Assembly: GCA_029945195.1 (NCBI GenBank)
Contig: GCA_029945195.1_4117.1
Reading direction: 5' to 3' (one strand)
DNA: 64,000 nt
Origin: a phage
The notes beneath the pieces were generated by a model. The model was not told the DNA's origin, did no database searches, and saw only the letters and a list, made by a program, of their open reading frames with translations. Below are positions 2-43,014 of the stretch, piece by piece. Numbering within the stretch: the first letter of the stretch is position 1; every line of letters begins with the position of its first letter. The position numbers and the translations under genes are program-made.

Positions 2-2641
2 AAAAGAACAATTCAAGGAATAAATGAACAAGTTTTTGATTCCAACGGTAACTTGGAATTAGATACTTATTCCAGAGATGAAGTACTAGATATAGTAAGT
101 ATGATGCCAATCTCCCATTATGGTTCACAAAACTATCTACCTGCGGGTGTTTCTGGGGATTTCAATGGTGCATCAGAAAACCAGTCACAACGTAGAAATA
201 AAATTTTATTAGAAAACGATGGTACACTAGTACTTTTACGTAGTGGGACAAACGGTAGTGTTGAGGGATTATTTTATTCATATTTGGCTAACGCATTATC
301 AGTTGATGACATGAGCCGTACAATTAACACTAGTCGTCAATACAAGCCTGGGTTTTTTGGTTCAAATAGAGTTGCGATTGGTTTATACAATACTGATCCA
401 AATATTTTACTCGGTAGATATATTGATACTTCTAACAGTACTAATGGTTTGTTCATATCAATTACCAATGGTACATTAGATGATAAATTGCATACTGGTT
501 TTTTCGTTAACCAAGCAGATATATCACCTGAAGGTGGTATTGAATATGCTATGATGGCAGAAGATGGTTCTATATATGTTTTTAACGTACTTAATGAAAA
601 TAACCAACTACAATTAGTTGTTGTAAAAGTTGTTTATAATATAAGCAATGGTACTTATACTGCAACTCGAATTACTGGATGGACTACTAAAACATTTTAT
701 AACACGACATATTCTGCACAAAATAATATGGTTATTACTAATCAGGTAACATCAACAAATATTGCTGATAAACCTTATGTGTATGTTCCACAAAATCTAC
801 GTGGTATTGGGATTTACATGACATCAATTGATTTATATGTTGCACAGCAGCCAGGAACGCAGAATTTCCGCTTTAGAATGAACGGGGACGCTTGGTTTAC
901 AATGGCAACATATAATACACGTCCACAGCATAGTTACAGTTTTGTGTTCAATATGAGTACTAAACAATGTACATTAGATGCGGGTAACGATATTGGTTCA
1001 TATCAAGCACCATTAGTTATAACTAATACTGGTTCGGCATTAGTTCCTACTGGTAACGTTTTAAATAACGATCCATTGTATAACCATGCAAATGCAAGAA
1101 ACATTTATAGTTCATATTTTTATTTGAATTCTGGTGAAGCTTTTTGTACTACATGTCCAAACTTAGCAGAACCATTACTTATGCAAAAAGCTAAGTTTCC
1201 TATTCAAATAGTTTATAGTATGCTGAATGTCCGTGCTGTACTTTCTACTGACTTCAAAGGTGGTATAGTTCGCCCGTCTTTTGGTTCAGCGGTTGGTTCA
1301 TTTATTAATGGTGTAGAATTACTACCAGATAACAGTACTAAACAATATTCACGTGCATCAGGTAGTGGTGGATTTAGACCATCATATGCAGTTCATAAAA
1401 GTACTCCTAATTTTACATTTAAATCATTATCTTTAGGAACAATACAAGGTTATGAACCTACAGTTGAACGTGCTAATGTTGATGATAATGCAAATAATAG
1501 AATTTTTATTAGTAGTATTTCTGGGTCAACTGTCACAACCAATGGTGGTATTTTTATGGTTGGGCAACGTTATTCACAATCATTATCCTATGATAAAAAC
1601 TTAAATGGCACAGGAATTATAAGCGTTACACAATCAGTACTGGACAATTTTAGAAATACTGAATATGCCAAAGTTCTAAGTGATTGGAATTTATCAGCAC
1701 AAGCATACCGTGATATGACACTATTTGTTCCACAACAAACAGACATTCCAGCTTTTGTTATGTTGAGTACAATTACTAATGATTATAGAAACTATATTAG
1801 AATTGCTGAAGTTAATGTCAATACTAGAGTTGGTAATATTACATCTATTACATTTAAGCGTTTAGTACTTGAGAATACGTATGGTGATAACTTTACACCA
1901 ACTGGGAATGGTTCGATTGCATCTTCTTCTGTTGGTTTGACCATATATGATGGTGGTTCATTCTACTTCATTGGTGGTTCTGACCCATTATCACATCCAA
2001 CAATAGGTAATACTGCAACTCATCAATTTAGAGCATATGTAACTAAATCAACTGCACAATTTACAAGTTTTATAATTACTGGATCTCATGCCAGTTATGA
2101 ACAAGGAAGTCAACCAGCAGCATTACCTGGTATTGGTTTTGGAATTTTTGAACCAATGGATTACTCAAATAAAATGACATTCAAAAAATATGGAACAACG
2201 ATTGCAGACTATAATAACTGGACTGCACAAGGTAGCCCAATTAACGTAGTATCCCAGGACGTTGCTCAAGGGTTTATTGTATATTTTACAGAGGAAACAC
2301 CAGTTATTCTTTCAGGTAAGTCATTTTCACTACCAGTTTCAAATATTGATTTGAGAACTATTAAGTCTAATCCAGCAAATACAACATTTTATGTATATGT
2401 TAAATTGGAACAAGGATTGGCAAACTATTACATAACTACTGATGTTATTTCTGAAACAGGGACAACTGCATATAATATTTTTTGGATAGGTACAATTCAA
2501 ACTAATGCAATTCAAATCGAAACAATTAATATACAAAAACGTTCCCGTTTAGATATATTTGGTGCTTCACTTGAATCAGCAGGTTCATCGTTCCCAGTTA
2601 GCTACGGTCTACCATCACAAACAGGAACCATAAACTGGTAA
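2..2641 (+). CDS. Large hypothetical protein, family A paralog (5' partial; reading frame open from window start)
   Basis: Frame is open from nt 2 with no upstream stop; N-terminal region and C-terminus (SFPVSYGLPSQTGTINW) are shared with the 3257..5986 product. Confidence 0.7.
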   Translation, partial: KRTIQGINEQVFDSNGNLELDTYSRDEVLDIVSMMPISHYGSQNYLPAGVSGDFNGASENQSQRRNKILLENDGTLVLLRSGTNGSVEGLFYSYLANALSVDDMSRTINTSRQYKPGFFGSNRVAIGLYNTDPNILLGRYIDTSNSTNGLFISITNGTLDDKLHTGFFVNQADISPEGGIEYAMMAEDGSIYVFNVLNENNQLQLVVVKVVYNISNGTYTATRITGWTTKTFYNTTYSAQNNMVITNQVTSTNIADKPYVYVPQNLRGIGIYMTSIDLYVAQQPGTQNFRFRMNGDAWFTMATYNTRPQHSYSFVFNMSTKQCTLDAGNDIGSYQAPLVITNTGSALVPTGNVLNNDPLYNHANARNIYSSYFYLNSGEAFCTTCPNLAEPLLMQKAKFPIQIVYSMLNVRAVLSTDFKGGIVRPSFGSAVGSFINGVELLPDNSTKQYSRASGSGGFRPSYAVHKSTPNFTFKSLSLGTIQGYEPTVERANVDDNANNRIFISSISGSTVTTNGGIFMVGQRYSQSLSYDKNLNGTGIISVTQSVLDNFRNTEYAKVLSDWNLSAQAYRDMTLFVPQQTDIPAFVMLSTITNDYRNYIRIAEVNVNTRVGNITSITFKRLVLENTYGDNFTPTGNGSIASSSVGLTIYDGGSFYFIGGSDPLSHPTIGNTATHQFRAYVTKSTAQFTSFIITGSHASYEQGSQPAALPGIGFGIFEPMDYSNKMTFKKYGTTIADYNNWTAQGSPINVVSQDVAQGFIVYFTEETPVILSGKSFSLPVSNIDLRTIKSNPANTTFYVYVKLEQGLANYYITTDVISETGTTAYNIFWIGTIQTNAIQIETINIQKRSRLDIFGASLESAGSSFPVSYGLPSQTGTINW

Positions 2642-2652
2642 AGGATTACATA

Positions 2653-3240
2653 ATGGCATATAAAATAAGAGCAGACCTTAAGGCAATGCAACAAGTTACA
2701 GTTCAGGGTAAAAGTACTGGTCTTGGTGTATTAGGTAATAATATGACTTATTACCCAACAAATTCAAATGGGGAATGTACATTCCCCTCTATTACCAAAG
2801 ATGAAGTTAACTTTATTGTCAATGGATTACCACTTACACAATACGGAGAATTGTATGATGACGCTAGTCTAAATATTACTTCATCAGGCTATAGTCTTAC
2901 ATTTAATAGACAGATACCATCATTTATTGGTGGTTATCTTTATAAATTTCCAGCAGTTTCTATTTTTGCTTCAACTGTTTCATCTGGAACACAAACACAA
3001 TACGTATATGCAACGTTAGTTCTCGGTGAACCAATTTATAAAATATCACCAACACAAATACAAGAATCTGAAATTATAATGTTTATTGGAACACTGACCG
3101 TTGGTACAAGTGGTATTACAAATATAAACATTAATAAAGTATCCAGATTTAGTACATATAGACCTAGTGTTACACAAAAAGGTTCTTCATTCCCAGTCAG
3201 TACTGGAAAACCATCAGAAACTGGTACAATTGGTTGGTAA
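2653..3240 (+). CDS. Hypothetical protein, short family A paralog (shares C-terminal module)
   Basis: ATG start 12 nt after upstream stop; C-terminus RFSTYRPSVTQKGSSFPVSTGKPSETGTIGW matches the ends of both flanking large proteins. Confidence 0.6.
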   Translation: MAYKIRADLKAMQQVTVQGKSTGLGVLGNNMTYYPTNSNGECTFPSITKDEVNFIVNGLPLTQYGELYDDASLNITSSGYSLTFNRQIPSFIGGYLYKFPAVSIFASTVSSGTQTQYVYATLVLGEPIYKISPTQIQESEIIMFIGTLTVGTSGITNININKVSRFSTYRPSVTQKGSSFPVSTGKPSETGTIGW

Positions 3241-3256
3241 ATTAAGGAAAAGAAAG

Positions 3257-5986
3257 ATGTCATCAAAACGAATTATAGGAAGTGCCGAGATCCTTGGGAA
3301 CTTGGCAATTGGACAAAGGTACGCTATGCGTACTTTTAATGGAACCTCACCGAATGCCAATACTGGAATTGTTCAATATCCAATATATAAGCGTTCAGAA
3401 GTTCAAAGTATTTTAGATATGTTGCCTATATCACGTGTAGGAGAAATGGATTACTTACCATTAAACGTAAGTGGGTCGTATGAAGGTGCTACACCTATGT
3501 CAAGTGACCAAGTAGTTCAGCCAACAATTATTGAAGATGATGGAACCGCCGTTGTTCTGCGTAGCGGAACCAATGGTAGTACTAAAGGTTTTTATTATTC
3601 ATTTATACGAGAACTCCGAAATATAACTATGATTTCACAAGAAAGTGTTATTTCAACCAATTCAATGTATAAACCTTCAATTATGAGTAGTACTGAAAAT
3701 ATTAAGTATTTTATTGGCTCTAATGGTTATGAGATGCTTGGATGTTTAAGTACTGAAGATAATTATATTTTTACTATAACCAATGGCACATTTAACGAAA
3801 TATCACATATTCATGCTAAAGTGCCAAGTACTTCTTTTGGTAATGATATGCCAATATATACACATATTGTTGGGACAAAGGTTTATATTTGGTGTAAAGA
3901 TAAAAGTGTTTCTAATTTAGGATTAGCACTTTCAATTTATACAGTAGAGCTAAGTGATGTGAAAGCAAGCTCAATGGAATCATTAACAAAAGTTACTGGG
4001 TTATCAGGTCAAACTGTTCGAAACACAAGTTATTCTGCATCTAATAACATAAGAGTGTTCGATAAATTATATAGTGTTGGTACTAGCTCGGATTCATTAT
4101 TCGAAGTTACATCACCAGTATCACGTGTAGAATTTTCAGACTATACAGACTTTAACATTCAAGCCAACGTTAGTCCTGATTTATCAAAAATACGTGTAAC
4201 TTTATATCCAACACATCGAATGGTTACACCTTTGTATATTTCAACAGTTTATGGTACTGGAATAAGTTTTGTTTATAATATAAACTCAAAATCTATGTCA
4301 CTAGATGGTAGTGCTCGTGCACCTGCAACTGTTTCATATAATAATGGATTTCAAGTTTCTAACCCATTTGAAATTAATATGGTCAACTTCACAGGGACAA
4401 CTGCTGCTGGTGTATTAGGAAACGCAGGTGGTTTATGTCAAACTAAAGATGGTTTGGTATTTGCATCTAAATTTAGATGGAGTTCAACTGAATTTTATGG
4501 TCTACAACGATATAAGGTTAGTGGTACACCGTTTGATTCATGGGTTGCCAGTACTAGAACCGCAAGTAACGTTATAAATGCAAACGTTTTACCAGTTTTT
4601 GGTAGTGCTGTTGGTGCAAACCTTTTAGGTGTACGTTTCATCGATAATAGAAAAATATTATTAGCATGTTCTGGTACGTATGATGATGTAACATATAATT
4701 ATAATAATACTGTTTTTTCTGAAATAGGTTCACAACCAACATATCAATATAACTCAGTTCAAAATAATACTACATTAAATGGTTTTGCACCACAATCTAA
4801 TCGTAAACAAATAGGCGATGATTTTACATACACTGCTATGATTTCTCTTGTTGATACCGATGGTAGTGTTAGATGCTATGGAACATCATTCATTGAAGGT
4901 GTATATAAAACAAGTGGTGGATTATTAAACCCAGATACTTTAGAATTTGATGAAACATATACAATAGAACCAACGGTATTAGAATCATTAAAACAAGATA
5001 TTTTTGCTAATATAGGAAACTCTGGCATTGTTGGCACACTATCTGGACAAATTGTATTATATTATGTACCTGATAATACTTTTTCTAAATCCATCGCAGT
5101 AGTTTCAGCATATAATCTTAACAATAACCAAGGTTATGCAATCTATGCCGAAGTTGATGTTGTATTATCTGGAACTAACATAACTTCAGCTACATTGGTG
5201 AGTACTAGATATGAGACACTTAGTTCTGTTACAGGAATTATTACTGAAGCATATATGAAACGTTGTACTGGTCTAACAGTTGCAAAATATTCAGGATTTG
5301 GTTACATTGGTGTTGATGCTGTTCATCAATTTTCACAACCAGGTAATGCACAATTTAAGATGATGATAGCTAAAACAGTAGATGGTGTCATAACATCAAA
5401 TCGTTTTTTATCATCTAGTTACATCCAACTTGGTGCAGCATATCAACATGGTGTTATTCCTGGTGTTGGTTTTGGATATTACAATTTTCAAGATTCTGAC
5501 TATCAAACCAAATCTGTATTCAGCGTTTTTGGTACAACATCTGCTGAAATGGATGGTTTAATTAGTGGAAATGGTAGCGTTAAAGAAAAGATTGTGGTAG
5601 TATCACAAGACGTTGCACAAGGATTCTCAGTGTACTTTACACGTGAAGTTCCGGTGTTTTTAGGTGGAATTTTCGACAGACTACCTATACAAAGTGTTGA
5701 TTTAAGTACTGTAAAAAGTAACCCAGCTAATACTACGTTCTATTTGTATATACAAATGAACAGGAATACTAAGAAAGCGTCATATGTTATTAGTACTGAA
5801 ACAATTGATGAATCTTTAACTAGCACTTACATTGGTAAGATAGTTACTGGAACTTCAGGAATAACTTCAATTGATACAGAAAAAGTAACTCGTTTTTTGA
5901 CATATCGTCCAAGTACAACGAAACGTGGTTCAGCGATACCTGCCAGTACTGGTGTACCATCAGGTCCAGGTACACGTTGGAAATAA
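3257..5986 (+). CDS. Large hypothetical protein, family A paralog
   Basis: ATG at 3257 preceded by AAGGAAAAG; the track start at 3167 lies inside the upstream gene; conserved N-terminal (LPIS..YLP..VSG, VVLRSGTNGS) and C-terminal modules. Confidence 0.7.
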   Translation: MSSKRIIGSAEILGNLAIGQRYAMRTFNGTSPNANTGIVQYPIYKRSEVQSILDMLPISRVGEMDYLPLNVSGSYEGATPMSSDQVVQPTIIEDDGTAVVLRSGTNGSTKGFYYSFIRELRNITMISQESVISTNSMYKPSIMSSTENIKYFIGSNGYEMLGCLSTEDNYIFTITNGTFNEISHIHAKVPSTSFGNDMPIYTHIVGTKVYIWCKDKSVSNLGLALSIYTVELSDVKASSMESLTKVTGLSGQTVRNTSYSASNNIRVFDKLYSVGTSSDSLFEVTSPVSRVEFSDYTDFNIQANVSPDLSKIRVTLYPTHRMVTPLYISTVYGTGISFVYNINSKSMSLDGSARAPATVSYNNGFQVSNPFEINMVNFTGTTAAGVLGNAGGLCQTKDGLVFASKFRWSSTEFYGLQRYKVSGTPFDSWVASTRTASNVINANVLPVFGSAVGANLLGVRFIDNRKILLACSGTYDDVTYNYNNTVFSEIGSQPTYQYNSVQNNTTLNGFAPQSNRKQIGDDFTYTAMISLVDTDGSVRCYGTSFIEGVYKTSGGLLNPDTLEFDETYTIEPTVLESLKQDIFANIGNSGIVGTLSGQIVLYYVPDNTFSKSIAVVSAYNLNNNQGYAIYAEVDVVLSGTNITSATLVSTRYETLSSVTGIITEAYMKRCTGLTVAKYSGFGYIGVDAVHQFSQPGNAQFKMMIAKTVDGVITSNRFLSSSYIQLGAAYQHGVIPGVGFGYYNFQDSDYQTKSVFSVFGTTSAEMDGLISGNGSVKEKIVVVSQDVAQGFSVYFTREVPVFLGGIFDRLPIQSVDLSTVKSNPANTTFYLYIQMNRNTKKASYVISTETIDESLTSTYIGKIVTGTSGITSIDTEKVTRFLTYRPSTTKRGSAIPASTGVPSGPGTRWK

Positions 5987-6053
5987 ATTTAAAGCTCGTC
6001 TATTGACGGGCTTTTCTTTTATGTGTATAATTGAATAAAAATAGGAGGAAATT

Positions 6054-6620
6054 ATGGTCAAAACTTTATTACCACCACCAAAACGTCACAAAATCAAAGA
6101 AATGAAAGAACAACGTACATTAAAGATGTACAACAATTTAGTTAAGTTACTGTGTAAAAGTCCATCGCTCAAAGCAGAGTTTAAAACTGATGATGACCGT
6201 AAAGCACTAATTGAGATGAAATATATGCTCAGTAAAATGTCCTTTTACAAATTTGTAAAAGAATACGCATCTGACCCATTTAGTCCTCGTTGGAGAGCCA
6301 AACCAAGAGAGTATTTTTACGGTGGTTCATATACAGATCGCATTCAAGACACAGTGATGGGAGTTGAATTTGAAATCGATTATGAGCCGAATGGTGAGGA
6401 AATCTTGCAGATTGAGAAACGTTTACCAAGTGAAGAAGAAATTTATGTTTATGCAAGAAAACTTTCAAATTACAGTTCAAGAATTACTCTAGGCAATTTA
6501 GATTCATTAATTATTTTCTATACACGTGTTGGTGTAGATAAGATGGTAACTAAACTCAATGAACTTTCATTACAACAAAAACAGATTAATGCATACAAAG
6601 ACATTACTGATTTATACTAA
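6054..6620 (+). CDS. Hypothetical protein, family B tandem paralog 1
   Basis: AGGAGG SD before ATG; shares KSPSLK...D.DR..L...KY.LSK motif with the next two genes. Confidence 0.65.
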   Translation: MVKTLLPPPKRHKIKEMKEQRTLKMYNNLVKLLCKSPSLKAEFKTDDDRKALIEMKYMLSKMSFYKFVKEYASDPFSPRWRAKPREYFYGGSYTDRIQDTVMGVEFEIDYEPNGEEILQIEKRLPSEEEIYVYARKLSNYSSRITLGNLDSLIIFYTRVGVDKMVTKLNELSLQQKQINAYKDITDLY

Positions 6621-6626
6621 TGAGGA

Positions 6627-7148
6627 ATGGATATGTTTTTTGGATCAGTTGGAAAACAAAACAGTACTTTAATTTGGCATGAAATTATCTTCAAAATTAT
6701 ATCTAAAAGCTACTCACTAAAGGATATTATCACCACAGATAATGATAGACGTATCCTGTTAGATGCAAAATATAAATTGAGCAAACACCCTTTACTTTCT
6801 TTAATCATTGATTACGTTAATGATTATGAATCTAGTCGTTGGAAGTGGGAAGACGGCGGTTTATTTCGTGGAAAAACATTCTACGGTGCGGAACGATATG
6901 TTTTCAGTGATGCATCAAATGGCGTTAAGTTTGTTATTAGAAACTTTAACTCCAAAGAAAATGATTATCTTGAAAGTGGAGTGAAAGTATATATCGATAA
7001 TAATAGCAATGTCCTAACATATGACGAATCACTAATTATGTTACAAATAATGCGTGGTGTTGAAGGTGTAAGAAACAACCTTACTAAATTGAAAATCCAG
7101 CAAAATGATATACATAATAGACAGAAAATTAAGGGTTTATATAAATGA
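6627..7148 (+). CDS. Hypothetical protein, family B tandem paralog 2
   Basis: Same N-terminal motif; start may instead be ATG 6633, which has better SD spacing. Confidence 0.6.
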   Translation: MDMFFGSVGKQNSTLIWHEIIFKIISKSYSLKDIITTDNDRRILLDAKYKLSKHPLLSLIIDYVNDYESSRWKWEDGGLFRGKTFYGAERYVFSDASNGVKFVIRNFNSKENDYLESGVKVYIDNNSNVLTYDESLIMLQIMRGVEGVRNNLTKLKIQQNDIHNRQKIKGLYK

Positions 7149-7654
7149 TTTCATTTTTCAAAAAGAAACAAAAAGTTGATGAAACAGGATTAGAATCGTT
7201 TCTATGGACTCTTATCATCAAAAAAAGTCCATTGATAAAAGAATATGCTATCAATGATGCTAATAGAAAAACTATCATTGAATACAAATACGAATTATCA
7301 AAATGTGATCCAATCGTTTATCACTTTGCGAAGTACTGTTCAAAAAATTTATCGGATATCACAATAGACCATGAGTCAGTTCCAATGAGCTTTCCTTATG
7401 GTGATTGGGTAGATACTTTTGATATTTTTGATGGGTCCAATGGATTCAGTTTCTTTTACTCGTCAAATAAAGCAAATGTTCGTATTAAAACAGAGATAGG
7501 TTGGGCACAGCATAGCTCAAATAAAGAAGATTATAATTTACTAGCTGACGTATACCGAAGTGTGAAGAATTCAAAGGATATTGATGAAAGAATTAAAAAG
7601 CAAAATCGTATTTCTTTATCACTTGAAACATACAAGTCAAAGTATGGTGGTTAA
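7145..7654 (+). CDS. Hypothetical protein, family B tandem paralog 3
   Basis: Start overlaps upstream stop (ATGA); same motif. Confidence 0.6.
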   Translation: MISFFKKKQKVDETGLESFLWTLIIKKSPLIKEYAINDANRKTIIEYKYELSKCDPIVYHFAKYCSKNLSDITIDHESVPMSFPYGDWVDTFDIFDGSNGFSFFYSSNKANVRIKTEIGWAQHSSNKEDYNLLADVYRSVKNSKDIDERIKKQNRISLSLETYKSKYGG

Positions 7655-7656
7655 CG

Positions 7657-8058
7657 ATGACTACAGTTGATGATATCTACAGCACTATACGCAATATGAG
7701 TACAGATAGAAAAGTATTTGGTGATAAAGAAAAATCTAAGTGTTATGGTATTGATTCTTTTGATATAATTTCTTATGAGTACAACACGAGTGGAAATAGT
7801 TCACTGAATATCGTCTGCCCTCGTGACCCAGAAAATAATTTTATGTATGTTGAAATTAATAATGATGGAATATTTTTTACAAAAGTTTTTAAAGGTGGAA
7901 TTAATTACGAACCAATTGAATGTATGAATGAAGAAACTTTCTTTCAAGAAGATACAATTATCAATTTAGGTTTTAGTTTTGATGATTATAAAACATTAGA
8001 ACATGACTTTAATCGTTATTATAACGGTTTCTTAAAGGAGTTAACAATTTATCTATGA
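7657..8058 (+). CDS. Hypothetical protein
   Basis: ORF tightly packed between neighbours; start overlaps upstream end. Confidence 0.5.
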   Translation: MTTVDDIYSTIRNMSTDRKVFGDKEKSKCYGIDSFDIISYEYNTSGNSSLNIVCPRDPENNFMYVEINNDGIFFTKVFKGGINYEPIECMNEETFFQEDTIINLGFSFDDYKTLEHDFNRYYNGFLKELTIYL

Positions 8059-10325
8059 ATAACCAATATGTTGAACAAACAATAGTGAAACACTTGGCTG
8101 GGTCACAAGCCTACGGAACCAGTACACCTGAAAGTGATACTGATTATCGTGGTATTTTTCTTGCTAATAAAGAATTTATTCTTACGCCATTCTATAAGGT
8201 CAAAGAAGTAGCTGATAAAAATGAAGAAGATACTAAATTCTATGAGTTAAATCAGTATTTAAAATTATACACTGAAGCCAACCCTAATATATTGGAATCA
8301 CTATGGGTCGAACCAGAACACATTGTAGAAAGTACTGAGATTTATGACTATCTTCGTTCATTTAACCAAAAACTTCTTAGTTCCAAGATTGCATTTTCAT
8401 ACACTGGATATGCATATAATCAGATTAAGCGTATGACAAATCATCACGGTTGGATGGATAAAGAGCGTATTGCTGAAAAACGATTAAATGAGATTTTAGA
8501 AGAACACCCTGTCGATGAGGTTCTTGCGTGGATGTATGATTCATTCCCACAGTATCTTGTTGAACGTTTAGATACATCCAACTTACATCCATTTAATGCT
8601 AAAAAGATTGATTTTGAAAAATATATGCGTGATACGTCATTGCAGTTAGTTTCGAAAAATCCATTAAAGCAATATCATTTTGTAAGATTAGTGCATAACT
8701 ACACTACTGAAAAAATTCTTGATCGTGATTTCAATTTATTGAATTTTAATAATGGTTATGAACTAATTCATTACGGAGAAAACATTTTTGCGATTATTAA
8801 AAATCCGAATGAAAGCACTATCAACGGTGATGGATCATTGCGTTATTTTTCTAAAGAGCGTAGTACTGAAGAGTTGAAAACTAAACCAGAACTAATTGTC
8901 AAATTTAACGAAAAAGAATATCAGGAAAATAGTGAGAATAGGAAAAGTTATCATAAATGGAAAGAAAATCGTAATGCCAAACGTGCTATTTTAGAATCAC
9001 AACACGGATACGACTGTTATAGTTTTGATACTGAATTCTTAACTAAAGATGGTTGGAAATTATTTGACGACATCACTGATAAAGATCTATTAGCGACTTT
9101 TGATAAAAATCACAAAATAGAGTATCAAAAATACACAGAACGTTTTGATAATTTATACAATGGAAATCTTTACCATTTCACTGGTCATCACCAAGATACG
9201 TTAGTGACTGCAAATCACAGAATGTATGTTAAGAATTATGCACGTAATCAGCAAAAAGATATGTCAGAATGGCAATTTGTTGAAGCAGCACAATTAAAAG
9301 AAACTTATAAAATTTTGAATACATTATCTCCAATAACAAAGGAATATAAAGATAAAAAAAGCCCAATTGACTATATGGATATCAAAGTTTATCTTCAACT
9401 GATGGGATGGTTTCTTTCAGATGGTAGTATAAGTTTTAGAGATGGAAAAGTAAAATCATTATACATTTCACAATCAAAAGCCAGTCCTGGTATGCGTTGT
9501 GCTTTATCAAAATACAAACAATCTGGACAAATGATATTTCAGGAATACATTAACGAAAGAAAAGATTACCAATCAAATGATGAATCAAGATTTGTATTTC
9601 CACGTGAAGTGGCTGAAGCATTATATAATGATTGTGGGCATGGATCATATAATAAAAGAATTCCAAATTGGGCATTTGATTTAACAAAACGAAAAATGGA
9701 TTTTCTGCTAAAAGGTTTGTTGCAAGGTGATGGTACAAAACGTAATTTGGTCAATCATGATGACACATATGTATATTATACTGCTAATTCATTATTAGCT
9801 GATGATGTTCAAAAACTAGCATTACTGTGCGGTTATGAAACATCGAAATGGGGACCATACACAAACGAAACTAATTTTGGTTATATTGAAATGTATCAAG
9901 TTCATATCAATATGAAACCTAAATCAGAAAAAATAAACATGAAACAAAATCTTGAAAAAATTCCAGTAACTAACTACAGAACTGTTTGTTTTTCAGTTCC
10001 GAACGGTACACTGGTTACTCGTAGAAATGGTAAAACTGCATTACATGGAAACTGTAAACATGCTATGCACACAATCCGACTTTTGAATAGTGCAGAAGAA
10101 GCATTACAAAGTGGAATTATTCAAGTTAAACGACCAGATGCACAAATGTTGATGGATATTCGTAATGGTAAATGGAAGTATGAAGAAGTCTTAGAATATT
10201 TCGATGATAAAGTACAATACATTCGTGATGTTCTATATAAGAAATCAGTACTTCCTAAAAAACCAAACATCAAGTTAGCATCAAAAATTATCATTGATAT
10301 TAGAGAAATGCAATGGTATAAGTAA
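8055..10325 (+). CDS. Pol-beta-superfamily nucleotidyltransferase (RNA-repair-type) interrupted by an intein
   Basis: N-terminal GSQAYGTSTPESDTDYRGIF matches the GS...SD.D nucleotidyltransferase motif; an internal ~346-aa insert carries intein and LAGLIDADG blocks. Confidence 0.7.
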   Translation: MNNQYVEQTIVKHLAGSQAYGTSTPESDTDYRGIFLANKEFILTPFYKVKEVADKNEEDTKFYELNQYLKLYTEANPNILESLWVEPEHIVESTEIYDYLRSFNQKLLSSKIAFSYTGYAYNQIKRMTNHHGWMDKERIAEKRLNEILEEHPVDEVLAWMYDSFPQYLVERLDTSNLHPFNAKKIDFEKYMRDTSLQLVSKNPLKQYHFVRLVHNYTTEKILDRDFNLLNFNNGYELIHYGENIFAIIKNPNESTINGDGSLRYFSKERSTEELKTKPELIVKFNEKEYQENSENRKSYHKWKENRNAKRAILESQHGYDCYSFDTEFLTKDGWKLFDDITDKDLLATFDKNHKIEYQKYTERFDNLYNGNLYHFTGHHQDTLVTANHRMYVKNYARNQQKDMSEWQFVEAAQLKETYKILNTLSPITKEYKDKKSPIDYMDIKVYLQLMGWFLSDGSISFRDGKVKSLYISQSKASPGMRCALSKYKQSGQMIFQEYINERKDYQSNDESRFVFPREVAEALYNDCGHGSYNKRIPNWAFDLTKRKMDFLLKGLLQGDGTKRNLVNHDDTYVYYTANSLLADDVQKLALLCGYETSKWGPYTNETNFGYIEMYQVHINMKPKSEKINMKQNLEKIPVTNYRTVCFSVPNGTLVTRRNGKTALHGNCKHAMHTIRLLNSAEEALQSGIIQVKRPDAQMLMDIRNGKWKYEEVLEYFDDKVQYIRDVLYKKSVLPKKPNIKLASKIIIDIREMQWYK
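9015..10052 (+). mobile_element. Intein with LAGLIDADG homing-endonuclease domain (boundaries approximate)
   Basis: Begins at Cys (CYSFDTEFLTKDGW, block A); TANH (block B); two LAGLIDADG-like motifs LMGWFLSDGSI and LLKGLLQGDGT; C-terminal ...VCFSVPNGTLV...ALHGN followed by Cys +1. Confidence 0.65.
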
Positions 10326-10493
10326 CATATACAAGTGTAATGGTACTAAAAATGCCATTACACTCAATAAATACTCAATATAAATTAACACAAGGATTAA
10401 GTATGGCACAACAAATTTTCACAGATATCCACACTACCGGAGTTATTAAATTTCAAAATAATTTTTCAGGTGCAACTGGTGTAGACATTAAAA

Positions 10494-11030
10494 ATGATGG
10501 TTTTAACATTGTCAGTACTCGGATCTATTGATGGTGAAGATAGTTCTCTTAGTGATTCTGTGATTGCATCATTCGGAACTAATAAAAACAGTTCTTTTAT
10601 TATATCTGGATGGACTGGAATGACTGATTCTGAAAATAATGTTAAGATAAAAGCTAAAGCTACTAACGAGAATCATGAAACAGAATGGGTAACATTATAT
10701 GATAGTGCAAGTAATAAGTTATATAATGTATTAAGTTCTAATAATATTTTAATTAATCCACTGTCGGGCAATGCTGTTTTTAATATTAATTTATCTGATA
10801 GAAATACTACTATTTCGATTGGTGCGGCTCCTACTGAAGTTTATTCAATTACCATCCTATTAACACAACAAACAGGTTCAAACCTAGTTAATTGGGGTTC
10901 TAATGTTAAATGGTCATATAACAGACCAGTTGTTCTTTCTTATGAAATTGGTGAAAAAGATATTATTTCATTAGAAACATATGATAAAGGAGTTACATGG
11001 TACGGTGCATTAATTAGAGCAGGAGTATGA
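10494..11030 (+). CDS. Hypothetical protein; possibly the 3' part of a frameshifted gene beginning at ATG 10402
   Basis: A 43-codon ORF with a good SD (AAGGA) starts at 10402 and ends at 10531, overlapping this +1-frame ORF, which has no obvious RBS of its own. Confidence 0.4.
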   Translation: MMVLTLSVLGSIDGEDSSLSDSVIASFGTNKNSSFIISGWTGMTDSENNVKIKAKATNENHETEWVTLYDSASNKLYNVLSSNNILINPLSGNAVFNINLSDRNTTISIGAAPTEVYSITILLTQQTGSNLVNWGSNVKWSYNRPVVLSYEIGEKDIISLETYDKGVTWYGALIRAGV

Positions 11031-11031
11031 T

Positions 11032-13821
11032 ATGTTAAACAATAATATTGATAATATTGTACAACTTCTTTATGGGCATCACAAATTTATTGAAAGAAAT
11101 ACTGGTGATACAATAGACCCAACAGTACAACATTATGTGGTGAATAATCAGGGTGTTTTGGCGAACAACCGTCATTTTATTAACTATTCTGCAATGGAAG
11201 GTCAACCAAACGGTGACGGGACAACAGAAGGTCAAAGTCTATTAATTTTAGGATACATTTATGCGTATCTGGCAACAAATGATCCAATGTTTTTAGATAA
11301 GGCAAAGTGGTACTGGGACGCATATCATCAGTACTTTTATGCTGGGCGTGAATTACCAGACCCACCAACCCCACTGCAATGTAACTGGATAGTTAATGCC
11401 AAAGAACCGATTTTGGCTAACTGGCCTTTAGCTGATGATGGATGGCCTACACATGGTGGTTTCAAGGGTGTAGAATTTACATTTACAAATGGACAATGTA
11501 AAATACCACATGGTGCACCTTATTATGGTCAGTTCTTGGATAAAGTAACATTTGCATTCAAAGGTGCTTTAGCATGGAACCAAATAAATGCGTCAGTAAA
11601 AGCATTATTACCAGATGGTAGTGTTGATTGGGATACACCAGGTGAACAATATGATGTTGACTGGATTATCGATTTCATGGGTAGAAAAATCGACTGGGAT
11701 GGTAATATTTTAGCAGAAGGTTTTGACGAATCTGAAAAAGGAACTGTTCAATTAAAGAATACAACAATTAATGGTGTATATAAATTAAATTTTGCAAATC
11801 GTCAACCAGTAGAATATGGTGGTGTGATAATTCAACGAAATGAAATGCAACACAACCGCCCTCTTCATGTTCCAATTGATTTGGAATTTGCTGATAACGC
11901 ATCAGATGCAGAATTATGGTTTAGTGATGCTTCTTATTTGTTATATAAAATAACAAAAGAAAGAAAACATTATTTGGGTTGGAAATGTTCACTACTAACG
12001 TGTTATGCTTATGGTGATATTGACTCCAGAGATAAATTTTTCAGACAAAGTACAATTGTAACCACACCATTCACTGATGGTATTTCCTATGAATATTTTT
12101 ATCCTAGTGATGCTATTGCTAAGTTTGGTAGAAATTCTCTAGGATATATTACTATCAGGCAAGACCAAAGTGCACAAAGTACTATGGAACAACAAGCTAT
12201 TTGGTTCAGGGTCAATGCTGATTCTAAATTACTTGTAGACTATGGTGGTGTATGTGATGATGGTAAGCCGTTATCATTTAAACCAGTACTGGAATTGTCA
12301 AAAACAAAAAATGACCATGATGTTGTTCGTTATCGTTGTGGCTTACCGGAAAGTAAAGACCAAAATATCACACATTCATTAACACCTTTAAGTGCATTTG
12401 TTAGAGAAAAGAAAGCAGATGGTTCCCCTTATATAATTGCTGATAGTAGAATTGTTGTTCCTTATGGTGCAGCTACGTCCGAAATGATATATAGTACTGA
12501 TATATTAGTTACACGCCGCGATACCATTAATCAGTTAGTTTGTGGTGAAGATGATGGTGCTGTTATTGGATTTTGGCTATTAGCAACAAATAAGTCTGAA
12601 GTTAAATCTTTTACCTATCGTTCATATGAAGATGATTACAATATAAGAATTGTAGATGATAATGGTTGGAGATGGTGGTGGATGATTCCTGCAACACACG
12701 GGGAATGGACTACAATCACACTAAGTTCAGATACATTACGTTTATCTGGGTATCAGCCAAATCATCCAAGTTCTGACCCAAGACCATATGCACCAGTTTA
12801 TAGTGAACTAGAAGATATTACTATTTTACCTGATACAACCCCAGTAGATGGTGTTGCTGCAATAATTGATTGGTATTGTATTAATGACATTCCAGAATTA
12901 TACACGGATGCTGACGGTGATGACTATACTATGACATTTTCAATAACAATTGCAGGTGAATCACCATATACTGCACAGTTAGGGGATTGTGTAATCAAAG
13001 ATTATTTGTTAAACTCATTGCATTACACACCAGGAACAATACCATTTTCTAACATCACTGACCCGTATGCGAATCAGTATTCAGGATGGCGTGGTTTACC
13101 GTATCCAGGTTATCAATATCCTGTGATATATTGTTTTAAAGATCAGCCAGTAGATAACACACGCTTAGGAAACATGTTAAGCTTTATGAAAGATTCCCAA
13201 ACATGGTTTACTCAACAATTCGGTACTGTTGGTCCGTGTGCACAAGCATATGTTTGGAACCGCTGGGATAACTTAAAATATGGTGAACCAGATACATTTA
13301 CTATGCTACATTGGGGTGATCAAGCATGGAGTGGGTATGAACCACGTGCGTTCTTTGGGGCTGCCAGAGCATGGCAAGAACTCGCAGAGAGAGGAATTGA
13401 ACCACCAGCAGATCTTGTTGAATTTTGTGAGAATTGGATTCACTTTTTAATTCAATTTCAAAAAGATAATGATGGTCGTTCACCAACAATCTTCAATAAA
13501 GATGGCACAGTTGAAGGTCCAGATTGGGACTTTACAGGTCATATGTGTGGGTTGTGGTTAGCTGGGGCTTGTGCTGCTGGATTGGCTGGATGTAAAATAG
13601 AAGGTCTAACAACACTCGCTGATAACTTAGTTCTCGAACTTCAAAAGAATTATGTTATTGTAAATCCAGGTTCACCAATGAATGGTTCATGGAGTCCAGC
13701 AGTTAGAGAAGGTACTGATAATGGTATGTTTTTTGGTTTCTGGGCAGGTGAGATTATGCGTGGATTGGGATTATACTCAATGTACCGCTTAAACACACCA
13801 AATCGTTTCCGTGATTTATAA
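11032..13821 (+). CDS. Large hypothetical protein (929 aa)
   Basis: AGGAG SD, ATG start, long uninterrupted ORF; Trp-rich segments; function not recognised. Confidence 0.7.
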   Translation: MLNNNIDNIVQLLYGHHKFIERNTGDTIDPTVQHYVVNNQGVLANNRHFINYSAMEGQPNGDGTTEGQSLLILGYIYAYLATNDPMFLDKAKWYWDAYHQYFYAGRELPDPPTPLQCNWIVNAKEPILANWPLADDGWPTHGGFKGVEFTFTNGQCKIPHGAPYYGQFLDKVTFAFKGALAWNQINASVKALLPDGSVDWDTPGEQYDVDWIIDFMGRKIDWDGNILAEGFDESEKGTVQLKNTTINGVYKLNFANRQPVEYGGVIIQRNEMQHNRPLHVPIDLEFADNASDAELWFSDASYLLYKITKERKHYLGWKCSLLTCYAYGDIDSRDKFFRQSTIVTTPFTDGISYEYFYPSDAIAKFGRNSLGYITIRQDQSAQSTMEQQAIWFRVNADSKLLVDYGGVCDDGKPLSFKPVLELSKTKNDHDVVRYRCGLPESKDQNITHSLTPLSAFVREKKADGSPYIIADSRIVVPYGAATSEMIYSTDILVTRRDTINQLVCGEDDGAVIGFWLLATNKSEVKSFTYRSYEDDYNIRIVDDNGWRWWWMIPATHGEWTTITLSSDTLRLSGYQPNHPSSDPRPYAPVYSELEDITILPDTTPVDGVAAIIDWYCINDIPELYTDADGDDYTMTFSITIAGESPYTAQLGDCVIKDYLLNSLHYTPGTIPFSNITDPYANQYSGWRGLPYPGYQYPVIYCFKDQPVDNTRLGNMLSFMKDSQTWFTQQFGTVGPCAQAYVWNRWDNLKYGEPDTFTMLHWGDQAWSGYEPRAFFGAARAWQELAERGIEPPADLVEFCENWIHFLIQFQKDNDGRSPTIFNKDGTVEGPDWDFTGHMCGLWLAGACAAGLAGCKIEGLTTLADNLVLELQKNYVIVNPGSPMNGSWSPAVREGTDNGMFFGFWAGEIMRGLGLYSMYRLNTPNRFRDL

Positions 13822-13822
13822 C

Positions 13823-13851
13823 TTGACATAGAAAAAGTAATTATGTATAAT
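13823..13851 (+). promoter_or_regulatory. Sigma70-like promoter (TTGACA, 17-nt spacer, TG-n-TATAAT)
   Basis: Perfect -35 and -10 hexamers with extended -10 TG. Confidence 0.5.
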
Positions 13852-42618: not shown

Positions 42619-43014
42619 ATGCAATATAATTATCGTGAACTAGTTGAAGCGTTAGACGAAATTACCGGAAGAGATGAAGACGAAAGTTTTTCAGTTGAAG
42701 TTGAATCCGATGTTGTAGCAGTTGATGTTCTTAAGGATATTACCAAATGTCTTATTGATATTGTTGATAAGATTAAATCTGGTGAAGACCAAAAAGAAAT
42801 TGTAGATAAACTACAAAAAGCCTGTGACATTTTGTCTGACATTCGATATAATGATGAAAGTACTGAAGTTGCTGATGAAGAAGTGTTGGAAGCCATTGCA
42901 GGTTGTTTTGGAACTGAAGGTATGGGACCATCAATTGACAAAGAAGGCGTACAACACTATAATGAGCCTGGTGCACCATCTTATGCTGCACGTCAAGGTT
43001 TTGTTGGAGACTAA
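42619..43014 (+). CDS. Acidic hypothetical protein
   Basis: AGGAG SD; D/E-rich. Confidence 0.5.
   Translation: MQYNYRELVEALDEITGRDEDESFSVEVESDVVAVDVLKDITKCLIDIVDKIKSGEDQKEIVDKLQKACDILSDIRYNDESTEVADEEVLEAIAGCFGTEGMGPSIDKEGVQHYNEPGAPSYAARQGFVGD

Follow-up and report, generated by a model that had tools for sequence, protein, structure and literature searches.

A single protein family forms a tandem array of old, individually maintained paralogs upstream of an RlaP-family nucleotidyltransferase in a RaK2-like jumbo phage

We have analyzed a tandem array of three genes, here called A, B and C, that lies at positions 6,054 to 7,654 of a 64,000-nucleotide stretch of phage DNA (the window; contig GCA_029945195.1_4117.1 of GenBank assembly GCA_029945195.1). 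A, B and C are paralogs from a single family; they are old, and each has been maintained on its own. They are followed by a small gene, D, and by a gene for an RlaP-family nucleotidyltransferase. The feature is an accessory family specific to one lineage, which PHROGs already lists as two groups of unknown function. What were three "hypothetical proteins" are now a defined superfamily for which a structural model of high confidence, the bounds of a transcription unit and a copy-number history are available.

The source phage is assigned to Asteriusvirus (the 121Q/PBECO4 group), a ~350-kb RaK2-like jumbo myovirus, because positions 5500-8500 are nearly identical to known Escherichia phages: 99.7-99.9% to BAU.Micro_ELP-22, UB, SP27, JP4, SHEFM2K and vB_EcoM_E9.1, and 97.7% to 121Q. 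Identity to phAPEC6 across the array region is 97.8%. The counterparts of A, B and C in 121Q and phAPEC6 are annotated as hypothetical proteins throughout. Several phages of this group are under consideration for therapy.

Homology of the three paralogs

The original prediction, made from the DNA letters and their open reading frames, had described these adjacent, same-strand frames as a tandem gene family and had proposed alignment of the products as the check. The paralogy is real. In BLASTP comparisons, A and B are 30% identical over ~175 residues, essentially their whole length (E = 1e-15), and C matches A (E = 1e-4) and B (E = 4e-4) in alignments that are both confined to the N-terminal ~40 residues. 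With a profile built from A/B-type sequences only, C scores 46.3 bits and a further eleven C-type proteins score 22-55 bits, and 2000 shuffles of C with matched composition reach 8.1 bits at best, so that the similarity lies far beyond composition. PHROG profiles are matched over their full length by A (phrog_18641, E = 5e-79), B (phrog_18641, E = 3e-85) and C (phrog_7868, E = 7e-58), with cross-matches between the two types at 2e-11 and 4e-5. In a set of 36 members, 35 match phrog_7868 and 32 match phrog_18641. We conclude that homology spans the full length of A, B and C. The PHROGs database holds the two groups apart as separate families, whereas here they form one superfamily; its entries give the function as unknown and record neither structure nor context, which agrees with the earlier description of a family of unknown function.

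The shared N-terminal motif that had been noticed in the three products is borne out as the signature KS..LK....D.DR..I...KY.LSK, which is found in A, B and C and in the family alignments. In the 36-sequence alignment a tyrosine near the C-terminus is invariant, and K48, S52 and D96 (C numbering) are nearly so; K48, Y49, D96 and Y167 count among the conserved residues. The N-terminal helical module evolves most slowly, with 46-50% identity between distant orthologues versus 21-35% elsewhere. No further copy of the family was found among the other reading frames of the window. D is not a member, and hhalign shows no relation of A, B and C to either D or a ~150-aa neighbouring family.

Distribution, copy number and age

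Related loci were gathered using an alignment of D as the query, and family members were also placed by tblastn. An exhaustive hidden Markov model (HMM) search of 1.84 billion proteins (cluster representatives; cut-off E<=0.001) returned 33 matches in total. These are standalone proteins of 139-197 aa, save one eukaryotic repeat protein and a 50-aa fragment, and no domain fusion occurs among them. The eukaryotic match (P0032, a look-alike of cysteine-rich secretory CAP-type repeats) arises from a repeated "KSP...D.DR..I" helix and is regarded as spurious, because just ~60 residues match, four times over. A word-indexed protein search returned close relatives only.

All members traceable to a genome belong to RaK2-like jumbo phages. 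These phages are Asteriusvirus, Alcyoneusvirus (RaK2, K64-1 and Muenster), the Salmonella Munch/7t3 group, Klebsiella phage fENko-Kae01, Cronobacter phage GAP32 and Yersinia phage fHe-Yen9, together with related metagenomic and IMG/VR contigs. The site of the array is constant across relatives, and the copy number ranges from 0 to 4: two copies in Alcyoneusvirus and in loci L008 and L011, three in Asteriusvirus, 7t3, L009 and L020-L023, and four in L010 and GAP32. At the corresponding locus of Escherichia phage EJP2 (L015, 5688-7634) no family member is detectable, and fibre-like genes, a DUF4326 gene, D and RlaP are kept. This gap may be a natural deletion, or the array may never have been acquired. 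The family is dispensable in at least one lineage, since it is missing from EJP2 at this locus.

Each of the two types, A/B and C, has a single gene in the Klebsiella phages, and the split between A/B and C therefore predates the split of the two phage genera. A4 and JNE01, divergent members of Asteriusvirus, also have the duplication that gave A and B, and orthologues of A, B and C are each recognisable in them; the duplication is younger than the A/B-C split, yet older than the divergence of the Asteriusvirus genomes compared. Thus, "triplication", the word first used for this array, is misleading: the tandem paralogs are genuine, but the A/B-type and C-type lines are ancient, separating before the Escherichia coli and Klebsiella phages did, with the A/B duplication alone being more recent. 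At least 32 phage genomes have all three frames intact.

Selection and divergence

Between close relatives (comparisons with 121Q, Turkey3 and UE-S1), the dN/dS ratios of A, B and C are 0.04-0.43, and each of the three genes is under purifying selection. The earlier suggestion that the paralogs are diversifying is not seen gene-wide at this distance. Over long timescales, A, B and C diverge much faster than their operon neighbours. Identity to Klebsiella phage Muenster is 24-31% for the three paralogs versus 59% for D and 75% for the RlaP nucleotidyltransferase. In a comparison of positions 53-10325 with Turkey3 (L012), A, B and C have a dS of 0.16-0.38, and the flanking gp499-501 and the nucleotidyltransferase one above 1; this mosaic suggests that the A-B-C block has been exchanged by recombination between lineages.

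Predicted structure

An AlphaFold model of C built from 36 sequences has a pLDDT of 90 and a pTM of 0.81. In this model, a disordered basic N-terminal tail is followed by four short helices (17-67) that bear the conserved motif, a five-stranded antiparallel meander (73-124) and a single 40-residue C-terminal helix (127-167). The model of B, from a shallow alignment of nine sequences, reaches a pLDDT of 66 and has its secondary-structure elements in the same order. Because B repeats the order of elements in C, the C-terminal halves of the paralogs are predicted to have one common fold. The C-terminal divergence that had been proposed thus holds in part: these halves are the more divergent ones, but they remain homologous, share one order of secondary structure and keep the invariant tyrosine. 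All three proteins have a basic pI (8.7-9.2), and their helical parts are positively charged.

The head-plus-stalk proteins of the XRCC4 superfamily (XRCC4 and CCDC61) were considered as structural relatives, and their scores are at background level. The topology also differs, as the four helices come before the sheet in the A/B/C family, and there is no sign of a coiled-coil dimer. A Foldseek search of the PDB with the low-confidence model of B found nothing, a profile search of PDB sequences gave a meaningless best E of 0.067, and a search of the viral structures in BFVD matched uncharacterised family members only.

Predicted promoter and transcription unit

The coordinates of the array and of its associated features are given in Table 1. 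The spacer 5' of A is 67 bp long and holds a terminator hairpin, a predicted promoter and a ribosome-binding site; the hairpin was picked up by a terminator scan. The -35 element sits in the loop and 3' arm of the hairpin, and the -10 element comes after the T-run. The promoter is the top match in a scan of positions 2500-11500, and the pattern TTGAC-N18-TAWAAT occurs three times in 64 kb. The other two exact sites are at 13823-13851 and 42935-42963, the former likewise directly 3' of a large tail gene and 5' of a run of small genes.

Table 1. Features of the array and its predicted transcription unit (window coordinates)
Feature	Coordinates	Strand	Description
Intrinsic terminator of upstream ~909-aa gene	5991-6020	+	Hairpin AAAGCTCGTC-TATT-GACGGGCTTT, then T-run
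Sigma-70-type promoter (predicted)	6003-6031	+	TTGACG-17 nt-TATAAT; 11/12 consensus positions
Ribosome-binding site of gene A	6044-6049	+	AGGAGG; read from sequence
Paralog A	6054-6620	+	188 aa, pI 9.1; 121Q gp502, phAPEC6 gp321c; PHROG 18641
Paralog B	6633-7148 or 6627-7148	+	171 aa or 173 aa, respectively; pI 9.2; 121Q gp503, phAPEC6 gp320c; PHROG 18641
Paralog C	7145-7654	+	169 aa, pI 8.7; 121Q gp504, phAPEC6 gp319c; PHROG 7868
Operon neighbour D	7657-8058	+	133 aa, acidic (pI 4.4); PHROG 22376
RlaP-family nucleotidyltransferase (PF10127)	8055-10325	+	Final gene of unit; ~345-aa LAGLIDADG intein

The overlap of terminator and promoter is kept, with compensatory changes in the stem, across 13 aligned loci (the window and 12 others). 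Over these loci, 94.6% of cells in the hairpin pair, compensatory changes occur at four pairs, and the covariation score was reached by none of 500 shuffles. The -35 sequence TTGAC is kept in all 14 related loci examined, those of Klebsiella, Salmonella and Cronobacter phages included. The -10 element reads TATAAT or TAAAAT in about half of the 14 and is a one-base variant (TATACT, TATAGT, TATTAT or CATAAT) in the rest. The terminator of the Klebsiella phages lies ~50 bp further upstream, with the promoter still present, and GAP32 is likewise without this overlap.

Downstream of the promoter the order of genes is A-B-C-D-nucleotidyltransferase. The junctions had been described as translationally coupled, and this applies to B/C, where start and stop overlap in ATGA; the D/nucleotidyltransferase junction is likewise ATGA. 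It does not extend to A and B, which are separated by 6-12 nt with a ribosome-binding site inside the spacer, or to C and D, which are 2 nt apart. The start of B is probably at 6633 (MFF...) rather than at 6627, because a GAGGA ribosome-binding site at 6623-6627 is suitably spaced for it and because homologues start with MFF.

Work on CBB, a related phage, paired presumed early genes with RpoD-like promoters and structural genes with a T4-like motif (PMC5259590). By this analogy, the A-B-C-D-RlaP unit is probably expressed early. Literature searches turned up neither a transcriptome for this group of phages nor a paper that deals with the A, B and C genes. The location of the array in an early region, as had been supposed, does not hold in the classical sense, as genes for virion proteins flank it.

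The T4-type late-promoter octamer TATAAATA occurs on neither strand of window positions 1-64000, against the 10.4 +/- 3.1 copies that dinucleotide shuffles predict. TATAAAT is present 32 times in the window and is followed by T in 13 cases, G in 10, C in 9 and A in none; TATAAATA is specifically avoided. The window nonetheless includes genes for the tail sheath and tube, which should need late promoters.

Genomic neighbourhood

Conserved anchors enclose the block that runs from the promoter to RlaP, and the block behaves as a variable island. In various relatives it contains, in addition to the family and D, a ~150-aa reading frame, DUF4326, a Thg1-like gene and an N4-cytosine methyltransferase. 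GAP32 (L017, 5962-11591) has four family members, among which stand genes for a Thg1-like tRNA-His guanylyltransferase, a DUF4326 protein and an N4-cytosine methyltransferase, with RlaP downstream; the Thg1-like gene lies between two family members, and D is absent. Wherever the locus could be checked, the array stands upstream of RlaP, with small reading frames between; this does not cover L008, where RlaP was not called, or L009 and L010, whose sequences stop too soon. Co-occurrence with RlaP is not obligate, as RlaP is found without the family in EJP2, in bacteria and in T4. In the Klebsiella phages the genes upstream are unrelated tail-fibre or depolymerase genes, and the block itself is retained.

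RlaP extends damaged 3' ends of RNA by one or two nucleotides; NrdC.11 of T4 is an RlaP (PMC12776372). RlaP and Thg1 are RNA-end repair enzymes, thought to be used by jumbo phages against host RNases (PMC7824862; PMC12776372). DUF4326 is predicted to act as an enzymatic domain in connection with NAD+/ADP-ribose signalling and with both restriction-modification and DNA modification (PMC7824862).

A, B and C are non-structural. The virion proteome of phAPEC6 (62 proteins by ESI-MS/MS) lists gp314c, gp315c and gp323c, and gp319c-321c are absent from it; the homologue of gp499 is a virion protein in the same phage (PMC7247149).

Searches for known functions

Pfam searches with A, B, C, D and 36 members (E<=10) yielded no consistent match. 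Neither a helix-turn-helix nor any other DNA-binding or RNA-binding family was found in the A/B/C family, even at a permissive threshold. Characterised anti-defence homologues were sought in general libraries only, and none was matched in Pfam (where Ocr, ArdA and several families of Acr are represented), among solved structures or in BFVD. A PADLOC match to DUF2290 (E = 0.0046) was given by A and one other of 36 members only and was dismissed as noise. The PHROG "HNH endonuclease" profile phrog_10822 gave a marginal match (E = 0.006) in 3 of 36 members scanned, and a comparison of the family with the HNH gene of the window by hhalign gave a probability of 0.3%.

Possible functions of the family

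We tentatively favor a role for A, B and C as early-expressed counter-defence or host-takeover binding proteins, most plausibly in a conflict over tRNA or other RNA, and regard it as possible rather than established. The unit would be transcribed by unmodified host RNA polymerase and hence early in infection. Each paralog would act as a small basic binding protein, with no catalytic function proposed. The scaffold would consist of the conserved four-helix module at the N-terminus with the C-terminal helix as its cap, and target specificity would come from the fast-evolving surface of the beta-meander and helix. Different paralogs would address different host targets within an accessory counter-defence or host-takeover repertoire. 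The neighbouring genes point to the integrity of tRNA and RNA as the arena, in which host RNA-targeting nucleases, for example, might be blocked or decoyed.

The original prediction had already raised host interaction or anti-defence as a function for such arrays. In favor of this idea are the sigma-70-type promoter at the head of the unit, the absence of the proteins from virions, the copy number of 0-4 and the nearby conflict-type genes (RlaP, Thg1, DUF4326 and methyltransferase). The homology and common predicted fold of the three proteins, the purifying selection on each copy, their rapid long-term divergence and their basic character also count in its favor. The Pfam, PADLOC, PDB and viral-structure searches, all negative, gave no direct tie to a host target or a defence system. 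Several further points weigh against the role that we favor. The gene-wide dN/dS is far under 1, and the promoter is a prediction. The conserved polar residues S28, D38, R41 and S52 may, judging from the model, be helix caps rather than a binding site. The linkage to RlaP could be mere inherited gene order within one phage clade, and EJP2 has D and RlaP without the family.

T4 Dmd and Stp are small early counter-defence proteins that act in RNA conflicts. The A/B/C family resembles these T-even proteins, which act alongside Pnk, Rnl and RlaP, in its early-type promoter, small size, non-structural nature and association with RNA-repair genes. It differs from Dmd and Stp in having no homology to them, in its larger size (~170 aa), in its arrays of 2-4 paralogs and in having no demonstrated target. 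A more specific and rather improbable extension is that the family constitutes a new fold class of tRNA-conflict counter-defence proteins, in which each paralog would neutralise or decoy a different host RNA-targeting defence nuclease alongside RlaP, Thg1 and CCA-adding enzymes. If so, the arrays of 0-4 copies would be a record of the host nucleases met by each jumbo phage lineage. If the proteins do serve as inhibitors or cofactors in conflicts over tRNA damage, they would form a new protein class in phage counter-defence and would help to account for differences in host range among otherwise similar jumbo phages; if they do not, they make up an ordinary lineage-specific accessory family.

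The closest rival to a counter-defence role is that of a direct cofactor in repair by RlaP or Thg1, which we consider unlikely. As accessory subunits, the proteins would use their basic helices to bind RNAs, such as damaged tRNAs, and would hand these on to RlaP (and, in phages that have it, to Thg1), with paralogs differing in RNA specificity. Their basic character fits this proposal, as do the unit shared with RlaP, with its tight or overlapping junctions, the linkage in every locus that could be followed to RlaP despite the different upstream genes of the Klebsiella phages, and the two family members that flank the Thg1-like gene of GAP32. Against this, RlaP is widespread without the family, and purified RlaP works alone in vitro (PMC12776372). 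Moreover, Pfam searches detected no RNA-binding domain, and divergence as rapid as that of A, B and C would be unusual for partners of conserved RNAs and a conserved enzyme. The basic, helix-rich N-terminal domain with its conserved K, R, S and Y residues, together with the early-type promoter, would also suit DNA-binding or transcription-modulating proteins that act early on phage or host expression. We hold this to be improbable, given that no DNA-binding family was recognised and that the HNH cross-match is marginal and fails when compared with the HNH gene of the window.

The position of the array directly 3' of large fibre-like genes in all loci raises the question of whether A, B and C are assembly chaperones for the upstream virion proteins (121Q gp499-501). 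Chaperones of the Tfa type (lambda Tfa, Mu/P2 Tfa and those of the T4 gp38 type) are small, non-virion proteins with one variable half. A, B and C are like them in being small non-virion products (~170-190 aa) encoded just after long fibre-like genes, with a conserved half and a variable C-terminal half, and the virion association of the gp499 homologue is consistent with such a role. They share neither sequence nor fold similarity with chaperones of the Tfa, gp38 or gp57A type, however, and differ in their separate transcription unit and uncoupled copy number. A chaperone role is very unlikely because the conserved terminator and the separate sigma-70-type promoter cut the array off from the upstream gene, because the Klebsiella phages keep the family beside unrelated upstream genes, and because copy numbers of 0-4 do not track the constant upstream set of two large genes and one small one. 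EJP2, in addition, has the fibre-like genes and lacks the family at the locus. That the paralogs are decaying or redundant duplicates without individual function is scarcely credible. The absence from EJP2 would agree with redundancy, but decay is contradicted by the purifying selection on all three genes; the frames also remain intact in the many genomes surveyed, and A, B and C orthologues have been distinct since before the compared Asteriusvirus genomes diverged.

Other features of the window

The genes upstream of the array, at 53-2641, 2653-3240 and 3257-5986, are fibre-like paralogs of one another (phrog_3573). They comprise two proteins of ~860-910 aa and a 195-aa protein that matches the C-terminal ~120 residues of the larger two. 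D belongs to no known family and, at the level of identity to its Klebsiella phage orthologue given above (59%), is far better conserved than A, B and C. A tail-fibre/tail-protein module at 10494-13821 (178 aa and 929 aa) is absent from the same position in Turkey3 and UE-S1, where the nucleotidyltransferase is directly followed by a 139-aa acyl-carrier-like gene. The intein of RlaP occupies protein residues ~321-665, and the protein is 756 aa long here versus 410 aa in 121Q, BAU.Micro_ELP-22, A4 and Muenster.

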